From assembly GCA_964644565.1 (NCBI GenBank), contig CAZXWO010000003.1:4613-68612 (forward strand): DNA of 64,000 nt. Direction: 5' to 3'. This document shows, piece after piece, positions 56,136-62,184 of the stretch. Origin of the DNA: an uncultured Thermoplasmata archaeon (GTDB lineage Archaea > Thermoplasmatota > Thermoplasmata > UBA10834). The notes under the pieces were generated by a model. The model was not told where the DNA came from. It saw only the letters and a list, made by a program, of their open reading frames with translations, and searched no databases. Position 1 is the stretch's first letter. Each line of letters starts with the position of its first letter. Made by a program: the position numbers and the translations under genes.

Positions 56136-56321
56136 TCAGAACGTGTCTCTTCGCGGGGGTCTGTGCTTCTGGAAGCAGGTCTGGCAGTATACAGGTCTTC
56201 CCTCTGTAGGCTTGAAGGGTACCTCTGACTCTGCGCCGCAGTCGGAGCACTTTATCTTGTGCATCTCCCTGGGGCCAGAGTCGTATCTGCGGCTGCCGCC
56301 TCCGTACGAGCCGTAACTCAT
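56136..56321 (-). CDS. CxxC-x17-CxxC zinc-finger domain protein with Gly/Ser/Tyr/Arg-rich N-terminus
   Basis: The sequence is CSDC-(GAESEVPFKPTEGRPVY, exactly 17 residues)-CQTC. The start is taken at MSYGSYGG (56321), and the track ORF extends to 56366. Confidence 0.72.
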   Translation of the reverse strand: MSYGSYGGGSRRYDSGPREMHKIKCSDCGAESEVPFKPTEGRPVYCQTCFQKHRPPRRDTF

Positions 56322-56583
56322 TGCTTTATCTCTCCTTTCTTGCCTGTGAGCGCAATCTGCACTCACTGCGATTGAGTCTTAGCAAGTTCAACTACAAGTA
56401 ATGATGCCTGCCACATAGATATCAGGAGGCGAGAACGATGGCGCTGATGTCCACGCGGTCCAAAGAGCGCTCACGTCCTATCCTTCTTCGAACGCTCGAA
56501 TCAAGCTGGAGAAGGACCGCGCACGGGGGCTCTTCCATCCCGTGCCGGAGAGAGCCACCGAAAGCAGATCCTGTCATCCATAG

Positions 56584-56909
56584 AGACTGTGCGCGTATGC
56601 ACGGCTGGTGCCGACCGTGAGCCAGTCGACATCATCCATCAAGTATGGATGCATCAGCAAGGACGGTTCCGCGTACCTCAGGTGGGTCCTCACGGAGTCC
56701 GTCCACGTCCACACGCGATACGAACCAGTATCACAACTCTCGCGATCCATGCGAAGGTCGCGAAGCGGCGAGGAAGGCGCGTTGCCACCGTTGCGGCCTC
56801 GAGGAAGCTCCTCCGGGTCATCTACTGGATGCTCCCGCCTCGGTTCCGTGGCGTCCCCGCGCACAATTCGATGCATCTCTCCGAAGTTCCTAACGCCGAT
56901 GACTATTAA
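56584..56909 (+). pseudogene. IS110-family transposase C-terminal remnant (5'-truncated and frameshifted)
   Basis: One frame reads AYARLVPTVSQSTSSIKYGCISKDGSAYLRWVLTESVHVHTRY. Another frame continues with HAKVAKRRGRRVATVAASRKLLRVIYWML. A stop lies at 56581 and there is no N-terminal DEDD domain. Confidence 0.6.
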
Positions 56910-56944
56910 TGACCGCGGTCCGATTTCCCTAACGGTAATCGGAG

Positions 56945-57862
56945 ATGTGGTCACCGGACGACCTCGACATCCGGATCATCAAACTGATGGCTTCCCCGCA
57001 CTCGTTTCAGTGGGACGTTCGAATTTCCTATGCGAACGTGGCCAAAGATCTAGCCATAGACGAGGAGACGGTCCGGAACCGGCTGCGGCGAATGAGCGAG
57101 GCAGGGTTCCTGCAGGGGTGGCAGCTCATCCTCAACCCGATTCTGCTTGGTCGGGAGGCGGCCATCGTGGAGCTGGAAGTCAACGGTCCGGAAACGAAGG
57201 CCGAGGTGATTCCGCGACTCGGCTCCCTGGAGGGCGTGACGCTCATCAATGACTTCTATGGCAGTGAACTCGCAGTCCACCTCTTGTACGAGAGTGAAGA
57301 CGCCCTGACGAGACAGGTCCAACTGATTGCCTCCTTATGCCGTTGCCCGACCCCGGTTTGGTGGAGACTCGGCTTCCCTTCTTGCGAGCTGACCCCCACG
57401 AAGGCGGACTGGAGAATCGTCCAAGCACTGCGGATGAACGCGAGAGGTAGTCTGTCGGACGTCGCCCACAGCCTGCAACTCTCGCCTCGGACCGTCAAGA
57501 GGCGCATGAAGAGAATGGTGGAAGGAAACGCATTCTACCTCGACCCTCTGCTGAACGTGGGGATGGTCGGCGGTGTGCGATGCCGGTTCTGGATCGTCTG
57601 CGATGCGGGCAAGAAGCAGGCAGTCGACGCGAAGGTCATGTCTACACTCAAGAGGATTATCTCGACCCACACGGCGCCGCAGGAATACTCACTTTTCGTC
57701 GTCCACTGCGCAAATGCCTCGGAGCTACAAGAGATTTCGCTATGGCTGAGAAAGCAGGACGGTGTCAAGGAAGTCCGGTCGAATATCGATGTGGAGCATG
57801 TACACGTTCAAGGATGGATTGCCGGGGAGATTGAGAAACGGCTGTCGACGCCGGCGATCTAG
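56945..57862 (+). CDS. tandem Lrp/AsnC-type transcription regulator (two HTH + two RAM-like modules)
   Basis: The two HTH modules are DIRIIKLM...ANVAKDLAIDEETVRNRLRRMSEAGFL and DWRIVQALRMNARGSLSDVAHSLQLSPRTVKRRMKRMVEGNAF. Confidence 0.75.
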   Translation: MWSPDDLDIRIIKLMASPHSFQWDVRISYANVAKDLAIDEETVRNRLRRMSEAGFLQGWQLILNPILLGREAAIVELEVNGPETKAEVIPRLGSLEGVTLINDFYGSELAVHLLYESEDALTRQVQLIASLCRCPTPVWWRLGFPSCELTPTKADWRIVQALRMNARGSLSDVAHSLQLSPRTVKRRMKRMVEGNAFYLDPLLNVGMVGGVRCRFWIVCDAGKKQAVDAKVMSTLKRIISTHTAPQEYSLFVVHCANASELQEISLWLRKQDGVKEVRSNIDVEHVHVQGWIAGEIEKRLSTPAI

Positions 57863-58218
57863 CGTGCACATCGATTCTACAGGAAGCCCGCCGGACAACC
57901 TTTGACAGGGAGTTTGTGTATCAATGACAAGGTAGGTCGGAACAACCTCACGCAATCACATCAAATCCGAATCCAGCTCAATCCGAGAGAAGATGAAGAG
58001 GAGAGAAGCAAGAAAGGAGTCTGGCCCGTTTGCTGGTTCCCAATATTGATGGTTCTTGGTGCAGACAAAGTGAGCCCGCAGTGGTAGCTTCATGGAATAG
58101 ACTTATCTCCTGCAGAAGGGATGACCGGACGAAGGAATTGAAGTAAACGAGATGCTCGAGGCAGAAGACACGACAGTTGAAAGAGCATAATCGTTGGAGA
58201 AGAGGAAACGTCAGAGAG

Positions 58219-58428
58219 ATGATCGATATGAGCGACAGGCAAAAGATAGTCTCTATGCTCAGCATCGTTGACGGAGAAAGAGAGAGCATAGAAACGATAG
58301 TTGAGACAATAGAGAAATTCTTCGAAGACCTCCATCTTGAGATTGAGGATTGGAAGATCTCTATGGAAGATTTCAGCGAAGGCACCCGTGTCTTCGTCCG
58401 GTTTCAGATAATCGTGAAGAAGCGGTGA
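58219..58428 (+). CDS. small Trp-centred acidic protein, paralog 1 (amphi-Trp-domain-like)
   Basis: Paralogous to 61225..61416 (EIEDWKISMEDFSEGTRV vs EMEQWKFSIDDTKEGLRV). GGAGAAGAGGA lies upstream. Start options are 58177 (TTG), 58219 and 58228. Confidence 0.55.
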   Translation: MIDMSDRQKIVSMLSIVDGERESIETIVETIEKFFEDLHLEIEDWKISMEDFSEGTRVFVRFQIIVKKR

Positions 58429-59243
58429 TTTTCTTGACCCCTGAAGCAAGGAAGAAAAGAGGTAAAGAACCCCAAGAAGAAGAGGCAGCCACACCTGATC
58501 ATATTCGCCTCAACCCCGAGGATTGGGAAGACCCAGCCGGGCGGAGAATCATTGAATGCCACAAGAACAGTACCCATGAGACCGATGCGAAGAACGAGTC
58601 CGATCTCGATGCATTTCAGCAGGAGTGGAATACTAAGAGAGGCGGTCAAACCGCTAGTGAATATCACAAACAGGGCGCACCCTATATGGAACCTCAGTCA
58701 GTAGAGGAAGGCCGTGAACCCCGAACGAAGGTCGCTAGCAGTGACAGTGATAGGCCACGCGACGTCCACGTAGCGACCGACTCGCATCGCAGTCAATCGT
58801 TGACCAGACAGCCATTCTTGAAGCGGGTCTTGGATATCTCCACTATCGAAGTGATGGCGTTCACTGTCTTCCGAGCGATGTTCGGGAAGGGTGTCCGGGT
58901 ACCATTGAAGATCGAAGGCTCCATGGACATGGATATCGTGGTGAAGGACACCGATGTCGTCATCAATACCAACAATGTCACATTCCAGCCGCCGAAACTG
59001 CAGGTCTGGCATTTCATCTTTGCCTACAAAGGCAAGCCTGTGCTGGAGTACGGTCGCGGTATCGAACGTGTCAAGGTTCACTACTACCACGCATTCGTTA
59101 TGCTTGTTGCGATGTGGTGGGGCGGCAAGAAGAAGAGGAGAGCCGAGAAGAAGGCCGACGAAGCAAGAGATGTGGAATTGACCCGCTACGCTGCAGGTAA
59201 CGAAAGGCCAGATGAAGAGAATGGTACAGGTCGAGACCAGTGA
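58425..59243 (+). CDS. hypothetical protein (charged N-terminal half, beta-rich C-terminal half, short hydrophobic helix and basic tail)
   Basis: The frame is open from 58350. A GTG at 58425 overlaps the upstream stop (GTGA), and its own TGA overlaps the kinase GTG (GTGA). An alternative ATG is at 58686. No family was recognised. Confidence 0.45.
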   Translation: MIFLTPEARKKRGKEPQEEEAATPDHIRLNPEDWEDPAGRRIIECHKNSTHETDAKNESDLDAFQQEWNTKRGGQTASEYHKQGAPYMEPQSVEEGREPRTKVASSDSDRPRDVHVATDSHRSQSLTRQPFLKRVLDISTIEVMAFTVFRAMFGKGVRVPLKIEGSMDMDIVVKDTDVVINTNNVTFQPPKLQVWHFIFAYKGKPVLEYGRGIERVKVHYYHAFVMLVAMWWGGKKKRRAEKKADEARDVELTRYAAGNERPDEENGTGRDQ

Positions 59244-60079
59244 TTGCCGCACCGACAGTAATTCCAGGTATCGAGACCCGCCGTGCATTCTTCCGCAAAG
59301 CCCTCCATTGTATCCGCCAGATAATGGCTGAGGAATACGGAATGAAGGATGTCTCGATCCGGCCAACCGATGCGAATGCCGCCCGACTTTCCATACCCAT
59401 AACGATCTCAGGTCAGGACAGGAATGGCGAAGAGGTCCGTTATTTCGGCAAGATCATCGGTAGCAGCGACAACTTGTCCGCCCGCTCATTCCAGTTCTTC
59501 AAGAACGTCTATCTAGAGATCAACGCCCAATACCCCATCTTCGAGACCTATCAGACGTCAGAGGACATGGCCCGGGACCAGTTCACGATGATGAAGGCAA
59601 TTCACAACTGCGGAATACCGACACCCCACCCCTATGGATATCATTGGATAAGTGGTAGCCTGTGGTTGATAGCGATGGAATACCTCGATGCAAAACCTAT
59701 CTCTGCATTCAAGGAGTTGGAGACTGATCAGATCGACACGGTCTTCCAATATCTGAAGAAACTACATCATGAGAAGGTATATCATGGAGACCTCAAACCG
59801 GATAATATCATGATTGGGAAGGAGATCTACATCCTCGACGTTGGGCACTTGCGAAAGAGCGCCTCCGCCGCCAGGAAACAGGCCTACGATCTCGCCTGCT
59901 TGCTGTGCTCATTCCTGGAGTATCAGAAGGTCGAGGAAATCGTTCGGATAGCTCAGCAACACTATTCCCCCAAGAATCTCCAAGCCGCCAGTGCATACAT
60001 CGAGCTTGTTCAGATGCGACCAGACATCCATTTCAGTGACGAGACCAAGAAGAAGTTGCTCGTTCACTTGAGTGGCTGA
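59240..60079 (+). CDS. atypical protein kinase-fold protein (RIO/Bud32/Kdo-kinase-like, no activation loop)
   Basis: The catalytic loop YHGDLKPDNIMI is at 59783-59806 for HGDLKPDN. The metal-binding motif is ILDVG (DVG for DFG), and a candidate beta3 Lys is in RYFGKIIG. Confidence 0.7.
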   Translation: MIAAPTVIPGIETRRAFFRKALHCIRQIMAEEYGMKDVSIRPTDANAARLSIPITISGQDRNGEEVRYFGKIIGSSDNLSARSFQFFKNVYLEINAQYPIFETYQTSEDMARDQFTMMKAIHNCGIPTPHPYGYHWISGSLWLIAMEYLDAKPISAFKELETDQIDTVFQYLKKLHHEKVYHGDLKPDNIMIGKEIYILDVGHLRKSASAARKQAYDLACLLCSFLEYQKVEEIVRIAQQHYSPKNLQAASAYIELVQMRPDIHFSDETKKKLLVHLSG

Positions 60080-60226: not shown

Positions 60227-60778
60227 TCACTGTTGCTTTGGCTGCTGTGAGTAAGAAAGTCGCCCAAGGCGCTGACTGAGCAGCTCCTGCAGATTGTTGG
60301 GGTGGGAAATCGTCTCGATCTTGAGCATGTCTTCACCGGTGTCAATCTCGAGGGTTCCGAAATGTAGCACGCGCTCGAGGAGGTTCTGACGAAGGTCGAC
60401 ACTCTTGAACTGGGTATAGGGGACCATCTGTGTTCTCTTGCTCAGGATTCCGTCCTTGCGGACGACCTTGTTGTCTGTGATCAAATACAGCGTAGTCAAG
60501 CGCTTCAGCTCGCCACCGATTAAGCACAAGAGAGCGATGAAGAGGAAGAATAGCGCGACAACTACGTCAAGGGAAAGTCCCATTACGGAGTTCTCCACAT
60601 CGATGTAGTCCTTGATCGGGCTGAGAAGCAAGATGCCCACCGCCAGGGCCAAGGAAATGAACATCAGCAGGTAGTACTTGAACCCGATTAGCCGCGTGGG
60701 CCGAATCCTGTCCAGAGTCTTCTCATCGCCATGGACTGGTTCTTGGACCGTTGCGGGTGTCGAGGTCGGAGAGCTCAT
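60227..60778 (-). CDS. bacterial-type PH (bPH_2/YdbS-like) domain membrane protein
   Basis: Two TM helices are followed by LYLITDNKVVRKDGILSKRTQMVPYTQFKSVDLRQNLLERVLHFGTLEIDTG. Confidence 0.75.
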   Translation of the reverse strand: MSSPTSTPATVQEPVHGDEKTLDRIRPTRLIGFKYYLLMFISLALAVGILLLSPIKDYIDVENSVMGLSLDVVVALFFLFIALLCLIGGELKRLTTLYLITDNKVVRKDGILSKRTQMVPYTQFKSVDLRQNLLERVLHFGTLEIDTGEDMLKIETISHPNNLQELLSQRLGRLSYSQQPKQQ

Positions 60779-61224: not shown

Positions 61225-61416
61225 TCACTTTCTCTTCGGCGTATTCTTCGGTGTATGTTTAAAGAGAGACACAGCGTGAAGTTCCACACGTAGGCCCTCT
61301 TTCGTGTCATCAATGGAAAACTTCCACTGCTCCATCTCCGCGTTCATATCCTTGAACATCTTCTTCAGCTCTACGCTCTTCGCCCTGAGTCTGTTTGCCA
61401 TACTTACGTCTGCCAT
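61225..61416 (-). CDS. small Trp-centred protein, paralog 2 (amphi-Trp-domain-like)
   Basis: The sequence is MADVSMANRLRAKSVELKKMFKDMNAEMEQWKFSIDDTKEGLRVELHAVSLFKH, with a basic tail. It aligns with 58219..58428. Confidence 0.55.
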   Translation of the reverse strand: MADVSMANRLRAKSVELKKMFKDMNAEMEQWKFSIDDTKEGLRVELHAVSLFKHTPKNTPKRK

Positions 61417-61689: not shown

Positions 61690-62184
61690 ATGGAGAGAGA
61701 CACCGAATTGGACGAGGAGGAAATTGACCGCATAGCAGGCCGAGTTGTCAAAGAGATTGAGGGAGCAAGCTCCAAGGACATGTCAAAGGCGACTTACGCA
61801 AGGAAGATACTGATTCTGACCGACCTCCATTACACGACAAGGCTACTCGATGAGGTGGCCACTGCTCCGTCTGAAGAAAGAGCTTTGATTGAGAAGAAAG
61901 CGGTGATCAAAGCACTTCTGCTTTCAACATGGATACAGAGACTGTATTTCATTATCAGAACTCTATATATGTCAATCATCGGTACGGTAATCACTGTTGC
62001 CTACATCATGTATTTCGGCAAGATAGGCACCTTCTTGGGACTGGTACTCGGAGTCATAACATTCGTGATATCAATGATGGTCACACGATTGTTCGATGCG
62101 CATATGGCCCGTGCCACACAGTACATCGTTCAGAAATTGAGCAAACACAAGAAGCTCAGGGATTTCATCATGAATCACTTCTGA
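61690..62184 (+). CDS. hypothetical membrane protein (acidic N-terminus, about 3 hydrophobic helices)
   Basis: It is the only sizeable ORF in the region. The hydrophobic segments are LLLSTWIQRLYFIIRTLYMSIIGTVITVAYIMYF and FLGLVLGVITFVISMMV. Confidence 0.5.
   Translation: MERDTELDEEEIDRIAGRVVKEIEGASSKDMSKATYARKILILTDLHYTTRLLDEVATAPSEERALIEKKAVIKALLLSTWIQRLYFIIRTLYMSIIGTVITVAYIMYFGKIGTFLGLVLGVITFVISMMVTRLFDAHMARATQYIVQKLSKHKKLRDFIMNHF

Follow-up and report, generated by a model that had tools for sequence, protein, structure and literature searches.

The DNA described here is a 64,000-nucleotide stretch of contig CAZXWO010000003.1 from an uncultured Thermoplasmata archaeon, referred to below as the window. 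Three adjacent genes in it, A, B and K, are part of a larger, previously undescribed module of the Thermoplasmatota. The unit is a four-gene core composed of a Trp-centred mini-protein (A), a larger partner protein (B), an atypical protein-kinase-like enzyme (K) and a paralogue of the mini-protein (A2), and it often includes a fifth gene. A sequence-only reading of the window had taken A, B and K for the whole unit, and missed both A2 and the fifth gene of this genome, D. New here are one kinase family and three partner families (A/A2, B and D). The module is tentatively read as a phospho-signalling complex that would work near the membrane around the new kinase family K, a view held at a little under an even chance.

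Composition and conservation of the module

Gene A (58228-58428, plus strand) encodes a mini-protein of 66 amino acids, in which a helical N-terminal part is followed by ...EIEDWKISMEDFSEGTRVFVRFQIIVKKR. Gene B (58434-59243, plus strand) encodes a scaffold-like protein of 269 amino acids, predicted to have a disordered arm at its N-terminus and, towards its C-terminus, an alpha/beta domain, a short hydrophobic helix and a basic tail. Gene K (59240-60079, plus strand) encodes the 279-amino-acid kinase-like enzyme, and its GTG start overlaps the TGA of B. Gene A2 (61225-61416, minus strand) is convergent with K and encodes the 63-amino-acid paralogue of A. Gene D (61690-62184, plus strand) encodes a predicted membrane protein of 164 amino acids, with a cytoplasmic N-terminal part, hydrophobic helices and a ...RDFIMNHF end. 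Each component is single-copy in this genome.

Gene content was determined by running hidden Markov models, built from the first loci, on the six-frame open reading frames (ORFs) of all loci. The arrangement A-B-K with a convergent A2 is syntenic in approximately 30 Thermoplasmata and Methanomassiliicoccales genomes, so the co-conservation of the three genes is borne out. It is found in essentially every locus that is long enough, amounting to ~29 species genomes and 7 metagenome contigs. A2 lies convergent beyond the K stop in nearly all loci, at a distance of a few bases to ~1 kb. Even in one rearranged locus (L016), where A2 and K share one strand and A and B the opposite one, the four genes remain together. 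Loci of the clade nearest to the window have D next after A2, with 49-61% identity (syntenic in L003/4, L005/6/14, L009, L011, L012 and L015); loci outside that clade lack it. No Pfam family matches D over threshold, and searches of NCBIfam, PADLOC and PDB sequences with D gave no match.

At seven loci, a single ORF encodes A together with the N-terminal arm of B, and a separate gene of 154 amino acids, overlapping K, encodes the C-terminal domain of B. Such A-arm fusions occur in L018, L021, L023, L024, L027 and L037, as well as in P0166 and similar proteins. By the Rosetta-stone argument, this fusion suggests that A and the arm of B interact. At L025:3383-4365, in a metagenome-assembled genome from long reads, the A-arm ORF is split over two frames, probably by a frameshift or an assembly error.

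K is a putative kinase family of its own

The best NCBIfam match of K is the Bud32 domain model (TIGR03724; 50.2 bits, E = 2e-13, residues 113-245), which falls short of the equivalog cut-off of 125. In Pfam, K exceeds the gathering cut-off of RIO1 (PF01163; 29.7 bits against 22, and 30.2 bits in the genome scan), covering only profile positions 46-149 of 187. The match to Pkinase (PF00069) covers only residues 164-212 and reaches 27.8 bits, below the cut-off of 31.7. Scores close to the cut-offs are obtained with APH (23.3 bits, cut-off 23.2) and Pfam Kdo (22.9 bits, cut-off 21.3), and the NCBIfam Kdo kinase model gives 38 bits. The genome's own Bud32 is a separate gene (G000:C4:12758-13351) that scores 219.5 bits against the Bud32 model, with K second at 50.6 bits. 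Its own RIO1 (202 bits, contig C50) and a RIO2-like gene (73 bits, contig C15) also lie elsewhere. When the K profile is aligned with these Bud32 and RIO genes by hhalign, identity is 21-23% over 108-121 columns; for Bud32 it is 23% over 108 columns.

The possibility that K is a housekeeping Bud32 or RIO orthologue was therefore rejected, as both are encoded elsewhere with far higher scores; such orthology would have refuted the sequence-only reading. The sub-cut-off Bud32 score, the presence of separate Bud32 and RIO genes and the low hhalign identity together show that K is a separate family, Bud32/RIO-like in character.

K has ~190 homologues. In an alignment of 62 of 49-84% identity, the invariant residues are R49, L50, S51, P53, K71, H182, G183, D184, K186, P187, N189, D200 and G202; E108 is nearly invariant. 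The residue set of eukaryotic-type protein kinases (ePKs) is complete: a beta3 Lys, an alphaC Glu, H-x-D-x-K-x-x-N and D-x-G. K thus carries the whole phosphotransfer machinery, with Lys71 on beta3, the HGDLKPDN catalytic loop and the metal-binding Asp200. A Lys in the catalytic loop (D-L-K) is typical of Ser/Thr protein kinases. The corresponding loops of the genome's own enzymes read HGDLTTSN in Bud32 and HSDLSEFN in RIO1.

The AlphaFold2 model of K is confident, with a mean predicted local distance difference test (pLDDT) of 92.5 and a predicted template-modelling score (pTM) of 0.88. From the N-terminus, it shows a helix (10-33), three strands, the last of which (beta3, 65-73) bears K71, an extra helix (75-94) and an alphaC-like helix (107-123). 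Two strands, the catalytic and metal loops and a further helix (210-224) follow. Only 9 residues separate D200 from this last helix, and K thus lacks an activation segment. An ePK-like catalytic loop, a candidate ATP-binding Lys and a missing activation segment had been noted from the sequence alone; the 62-sequence alignment and the model bear this out. The N-terminal helix and the extra helix between beta3 and alphaC are RIO-like.

Foldseek searches with the model find protein kinases in general, with PknB first by E-value, and no query-normalised template-modelling score (TM-score) exceeds 0.5. Compact superpositions are obtained only on Bud32 (8unk_B, root-mean-square deviation (rmsd) 4.1 Å) and Rio2 (6fdn and 1zar, ~5 Å). 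The superposition on Bud32, among the most compact, has a TM-score of 0.62 normalised on the target and 21% identity. Against RIO structures, the TM-score is ~0.5 over 213-235 columns. Against ePKs, the rmsd is 10-12 Å, and K lacks both the GHI helices of those enzymes and their DFG...APE activation segment.

The same genome encodes a further kinase-like ORF of ~245 amino acids (G000 C11:26106-26432, minus strand), whose catalytic loop has RGD instead of HxD. This ORF resembles the Bud32 and RIO models weakly and is unrelated to K by hhalign.

Gene boundaries and translational coupling

The peptides quoted in the sequence-only reading, namely YHGDLKPDNIMI, ILDVG, RYFGKIIG, the beta-rich stretch and KKKRRAEKK, are all found in the window. 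Direct reading also confirms that the small ORF ends in ...AAG CGG TGA, with its stop at 58426-58428 and a GTGA spanning 58425-58428. The frame from GTG 58425 is open for 272 codons to TGA 59241-59243. A second GTGA, at 59240-59243, merges the B stop with the GTG start of the 279-amino-acid kinase-like ORF, which ends at 60079. From these junctions, a GTGA-coupled operon of three genes had been proposed. Comparison with 30-odd related loci upholds the second junction and corrects the first.

A homologues are usually ~65 amino acids long (57-82 as picked), and their alignment begins at ATG 58228 ('MSDRQKIV...'). The N-terminal pattern of the family, M-(S/G/D)-x-K-(E/D)-K, fits ATG 58228, with ATG 58219 as a possible alternative start. 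Judged by the homologue lengths and the alignment, the start at TTG 58177, which would give 83 amino acids, is an over-extension.

All 20 distinct loci with an unfused B gene carry a GGTG at the junction of A and B, where it overlaps the A stop (GGTGA or TAGGTG). In 19 of them, a TTG or ATG in the B frame stands 4-7 nucleotides past this motif; in the twentieth, L013, the B frame is broken. The motif is conserved, and in roughly half of the unfused loci its GTG is out of frame with B, which points to a Shine-Dalgarno site for B. The GGTG at the A stop is thus best read as a putative ribosome-binding element (GGTGAT, 58424-58429, plus strand, overlapping the A stop TGA at 58426-58428) and not as part of a shared GTGA start.

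For the same reason, GTG 58425 was rejected as a conserved overlapping start of B, though it happens to be in frame with B here and might still serve, giving 272 amino acids. The start at 58425 favoured in the sequence-only reading gives way to TTG 58434, most likely the homologous start of B judging from the related loci. A public pipeline likewise calls B from TTG 58434 (269 amino acids, P0121). The gap between the A stop and this start is 5 nucleotides, so the A/B coupling remains tight, though without a shared GTGA. An uncoupled start at the internal ATG 58686 had also been raised as an alternative. It is ruled out because two motifs encoded upstream of it are conserved.

The start of K at GTG 59240 is supported. 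K homologues begin at the same alignment column, and residues 10-33 are modelled with confidence as a helix, in agreement with a long N-terminus. The public call of K (P0001, 251 amino acids), which begins at ATG 59324, is too short: it drops 28 conserved residues (window 59240-59323), including part of the N-terminal helix. The GTGA between B and K is kept in the nearest relatives, L003 and L009. Elsewhere the junction is ATGA, TTGA, TGATG or another overlap or abutment, and B and K overlap or abut in ~23 of 27 loci.

The partner proteins A, A2 and B

The paralogues A and A2 match each other by BLASTP at E = 8e-9. A2 proteins are 57-63 amino acids long across loci. E40, W42, K43, S45, G52 and R54 are invariant across A and A2, giving the core E-x-W-K-x-S...G-x-R. 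No relative of A or A2 was found in Pfam, NCBIfam, PADLOC or among PDB sequences. A search of 1.84 billion representative proteins with an A/A2 profile returned only 60 clusters, made up of stand-alone forms, A-arm fusions, a multi-transmembrane protein with an A2-like end (P0182) and a few distant variants with Tyr for Trp. Two other matches from this search, P0180 and P0208, look like chance repeat matches and were set aside. The distant A-like domains P0204, P0205, P0207, P0211 and P0213 carry Tyr in place of the central Trp (...Y-K-F-S-V-E-K..E-G...). Some of them form the C-terminus of proteins of 175-178 amino acids, and P0205 is known from a single 1.2-kb contig.

B has 33 detectable homologues, all annotated as hypothetical and without Pfam domains. 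Its arm contains two motifs of the consensus W...(Y/F)HK (together 58509-58694, plus strand), LNPEDWEDPAGRRIIECHK (58509-58565) and DLDAFQQEWNTKRGGQTASEYHKQGAPYMEP (58602-58694). Both motifs are conserved, and the linker between them is variable and of low complexity. The C-terminal domain of B (LDISTIEV...EYGRG..., 58830-59155, plus strand) precedes the hydrophobic helix AFVMLVAMWWGG, after which comes the KKKRRAEKK tail. The C-terminal ~110 residues hold 12 of the 12 invariant and 21 of the 22 nearly invariant positions of the protein.

The AlphaFold2 model of B is poor (pLDDT 51). It proposes a helix at 135-150, five strands within 155-207 and a long helix at 217-253; in this low-confidence model, the long helix would begin with the hydrophobic stretch and continue into KKKRR. 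NCBIfam, PADLOC and PDB sequence searches with B gave no match, and Foldseek found no match of the model in the PDB at E < 1. Matches of the B model to CdvA (E = 6-9) are not significant. These empty searches of Pfam, NCBIfam and PDB sequences and folds agree with the initial impression that the middle protein belongs to no recognised family. A, A2 and B each end in a Lys/Arg-rich tail.

Distribution and acquisition

K was counted as present in a sampled genome at E <= 1e-40. By this measure, 8 of the 301 genomes sampled from the class have K (4 of 88 genera), as do 18 of the 401 sampled from the phylum (11 of 162 genera). None of 10 other genomes of the same genus has K, nor do the listed genomes of the same family. 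In another genus (g15), K is missing from one genome and present in two others.

The GC content of the window is 61-67% up to ~56 kb and 51-53% from 58 kb on. The module lies within a segment of ~11 kb with 48-57% GC, in a genome of 64.5%. Patchy occurrence and the low-GC segment together mark the module as accessory and horizontally acquired in this genome. Its base composition and its absence from the same-genus genomes thus suggest that it arrived by horizontal transfer, as the proposal of an acquired island had stated. In most hosts, the GC content of the module tracks that of the genome (39% to 66%), which indicates long residence there.

Near the right end of the low-GC segment is a gene for tRNA-Leu(CAA) (contig C3, complement of 71276-71361). 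An exact direct repeat of 19 nucleotides of its 3' end is located 1 kb away (C3 70234-70252). The tRNA gene and the repeat (C3 70234-71361, corresponding to window 65622-66749, past the window end) bracket an ORF for a membrane protein of 279 amino acids, in an att-like arrangement.

Neighbouring genes

The neighbours of the module were surveyed in 149 flanking ORFs from 24 loci. These neighbourhoods are not defence islands. Where annotated, the flanking genes have transport, metabolic, surface or housekeeping roles. Among the Pfam families of the neighbours, a small dual-specificity phosphatase (DSPc) is the most frequent, at 7 of the 24 loci. These phosphatases share a C-x-x-G-x-D-R-S loop, with 44-47% identity between copies. 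They are 123-149 amino acids long and lie a few kb upstream of the module in Methanomassiliicoccales-type loci (L029:3192-3572, with 43.4 bits against a cut-off of 33.5; L030:844-1242; L032:1032-1415; L033:827-1222; L035:2317-2763; L036:776-1156; L019:2146-2553; L065:5212-5583).

A multi-pass membrane protein of 380-440 amino acids, for which no Pfam family was found, is encoded divergently upstream of A (L036:2503-3816, L030:2503-3300, L032:2686-3819 and L019:2626-3804, all on the minus strand, and P0182). In L036, L030 and P0182, its C-terminal end is a third A2-like domain; in L032 and L019, the protein stops just short of such a domain. In loci of the Methanomassiliicoccales type, the usual order is phosphatase, divergent multi-transmembrane protein, A-B-K and convergent A2, with some elements missing from some loci. 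The genome of the window encodes neither the DSPc phosphatase nor the upstream multi-transmembrane protein.

A search of PADLOC-DB 2.0 gave no matches for A, B, A2 or D. For K, it gave matches to the catalytic loop only, at 29 bits or less (MkoA, PD-T4-6 and mad6). No PADLOC family recurs among the 149 flanking ORFs (the largest has 3 members), and a few neighbours match the mad3 or mad8 models. The suggestion that the module is defence- or toxin-like thus finds no support, given these generic kinase-loop matches and the lack of a recurrent defence family.

A proposed membrane-proximal phospho-signalling complex and its alternatives

In the favoured reading, K would be made together with B through coupled translation, and B would act as its scaffold. 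The C-terminal alpha/beta domain, short hydrophobic helix and polybasic tail of B would place the complex at the membrane. The membrane neighbour would be D or, in the Methanomassiliicoccales, the multi-pass membrane protein. The disordered arm of B may hold the mini-protein A through its two W...(Y/F)HK motifs. A and A2 would be regulated subunits or substrates of K, with their invariant Ser, in an acidic WK-x-S-x-E-E context, as the most likely phospho-acceptor. Where the DSPc phosphatase is co-encoded, it would reverse the phosphorylation mark. The substrate and adaptor roles that had been suggested at the outset for the two partners of K are likewise putative. The points in support of the reading are the co-conservation of A, B, K and A2, the coupling of B and K, the Shine-Dalgarno site at the A stop, the A-arm fusion, the invariant catalytic residues, the phosphatase neighbour and the membrane proteins.

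Several points weigh against this reading. Because the B model is so poor, the scaffold and membrane roles of B are drawn from sequence features alone. At ~12-15 residues, the hydrophobic stretch of B is short for a helix that spans the membrane. The first arm motif varies at its aromatic residue (Y, F, C or H), and the second motif is missing in a subclade of B. The phosphatase neighbour is present in only one order-level clade and is absent from the genome of the window. Ser45 is a candidate phospho-acceptor by its conservation alone. Moreover, the families nearest to K in sequence and fold, Bud32 and RIO (Rio2), are described mainly as ATPases in cells, where they work within complexes of small proteins (PMC11621456, PMC5815136, PMC9889334).

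In another explanation, K would not be a signalling kinase but the ATPase switch of a KEOPS-like or RIO-like assembly, driving a small complex through its nucleotide. A and A2 would then be paralogous small subunits comparable to Pcc1/Pcc2, B would be the adaptor, and the target would be RNA, a ribosomal particle or another macromolecule. In such an assembly, the Lys/Arg-rich tails of all three partner proteins would serve to bind nucleic acid, and one locus is flanked by genes for ribosomal protein L10e, Nop and PAN. However, the neighbours vary and are mostly unrelated to translation, and the module has no linked Kae1-like or RNA-binding domain. K has a catalytic loop of the ePK type (D-L-K), unlike those of Bud32 and RIO, A and A2 have no detectable similarity to any PDB chain, and a patchy accessory distribution is a poor fit for core RNA processing. 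This explanation is considered unlikely, though not negligible.

A conflict system, either antiviral or toxin-antitoxin-like, would have the kinase as effector or sensor and the small proteins as inhibitors or triggers. Kinases are known components of defence systems, and the patchy distribution, the horizontal transfer and the low-GC segment with its nearby tRNA-Leu and att-like 19-nucleotide repeat would suit such a system, as would the weak matches of K and a few neighbours to PADLOC models. Those matches of K are limited to the generic catalytic loop, however, no defence family recurs among flanks that are annotated as metabolic, transport, surface or housekeeping genes, and the GC content of the module equals that of the host in most hosts, a sign of long residence. 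The single copy of the module here also speaks against this idea, which is judged improbable.

It is more improbable still that K is a membrane small-molecule kinase that phosphorylates a lipid head-group, a glycan or a metabolite, with B and D as membrane partners. The Kdo/WaaP and APH/choline-kinase families are branches of the same fold, and K matches both the Kdo and APH models. K also lacks the activation segment and the substrate-binding C-lobe elements of protein kinases, and membrane proteins are linked to the module. Yet the Lys of HGDLKPDN is typical of protein Ser/Thr kinases, and the linked phosphatase is of the protein-phosphatase type. No lipid- or glycan-synthesis genes are consistently adjacent, and the two dedicated small soluble proteins would be hard to explain.

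In its fullest form, the phospho-signalling reading takes A, A2, B and K, together with D or the multi-pass protein, as an undescribed, horizontally mobile, membrane-associated phospho-relay complex of the Thermoplasmatota. Its kinase family would be intermediate between Bud32/RIO and ePKs, the Trp-centred mini-proteins would be phosphorylated on a disordered scaffold arm, and a dedicated phosphatase would serve as eraser in some lineages. This wider picture is a tentative one, held at clearly less than an even chance.

Relation to known systems

Among known systems, K resembles Bud32 of KEOPS (TIGR03724; PDB 8unk_B, 3enh and 2vwb) in being a small protein-kinase-like enzyme without an activation segment. 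Like Bud32, it is accompanied by several small dedicated partner proteins that include a paralogous pair, here A and A2. The partners of Bud32 in Archaea include the paralogous pair Pcc1/Pcc2 (PMC9889334). In contrast to Bud32, K is ~70 residues longer, with its N-terminal helix and the helix between beta3 and alphaC, has HGDLKPDN in place of HGDLTTSN and has no linked Kae1. The partners of K show no sequence relationship to the KEOPS proteins Cgi121 or Pcc1, and the distribution of the K module is accessory and not universal.

The RIO kinases (PF01163; Rio2 structures 1zar and 6fdn, Rio1 structure 1zp9) share with K the extra N-terminal helix, the insertion between beta3 and alphaC and the lack of an activation loop. 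RIO enzymes are recognised by an STGKE(A/S) nucleotide loop, an H-x-D-L-S-E-(Y/F)-N catalytic loop and an I-D-x-x-Q metal loop. K lacks these signatures and has RLSIP, HGDLKPDN and ILDVG where the genome's own RIO1 has STGKEG, HSDLSEFN and IDVGQ. It also has no winged-helix domain and no link to ribosome-biogenesis genes.

With the Hanks-type (ePK) Ser/Thr kinases, K shares the HRDLKPxN-type loop and the complete set of Lys and Asp residues. The encoding of a protein phosphatase nearby, in one clade, recalls the PknB/PstP pair. Unlike PknB, K has no sensor or PASTA-type domain, and the linked phosphatase is DSPc and not PP2C.

No paper on this module was found in the literature. Annotation pipelines label K as 'Bud32', 'RIO1 family' or 'serine/threonine kinase' and its partners as 'hypothetical'. 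The first two labels are misleading for inventories of tRNA t6A and ribosome-biogenesis genes. To our knowledge, little of the protein phosphorylation in Archaea has been mapped, and partners or substrates are known for very few archaeal kinases. The module is compact, occurs across two or more classes of Thermoplasmatota and joins three or four dedicated proteins to a kinase that represents a new family and has all its catalytic residues in place. The fusion and the coupled translation yield testable hypotheses on binding partners, and the module could be a tractable model of a minimal archaeal kinase-scaffold-substrate system.

Flanks of the module in the window

Between K and A2 lies an inserted gene for a bPH_2 membrane protein (60227-60778, minus strand), which is not part of the module. 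It adjoins the module in this genome only, and no homologue stands beside the module in other loci. To the left of A, two frames of a candidate IS110 remnant (56589-57252, plus strand) gave no Pfam match at E <= 0.001.

A clean empty site could not be demonstrated in the same-genus genomes G252 and G294 because their flanks are rearranged, the oxidoreductase flank being non-syntenic beyond a zinc-finger gene. This gene (window 56136-56366, minus strand) encodes a treble-clef CxxC zinc-finger mini-protein (Pfam zf_Tbcl_2, 70.8 bits). It is 97% identical to its counterpart in G252, where it occupies the same place by the oxidoreductase. The shared gene thus belongs to the core genome, and the acquired segment begins to its right.

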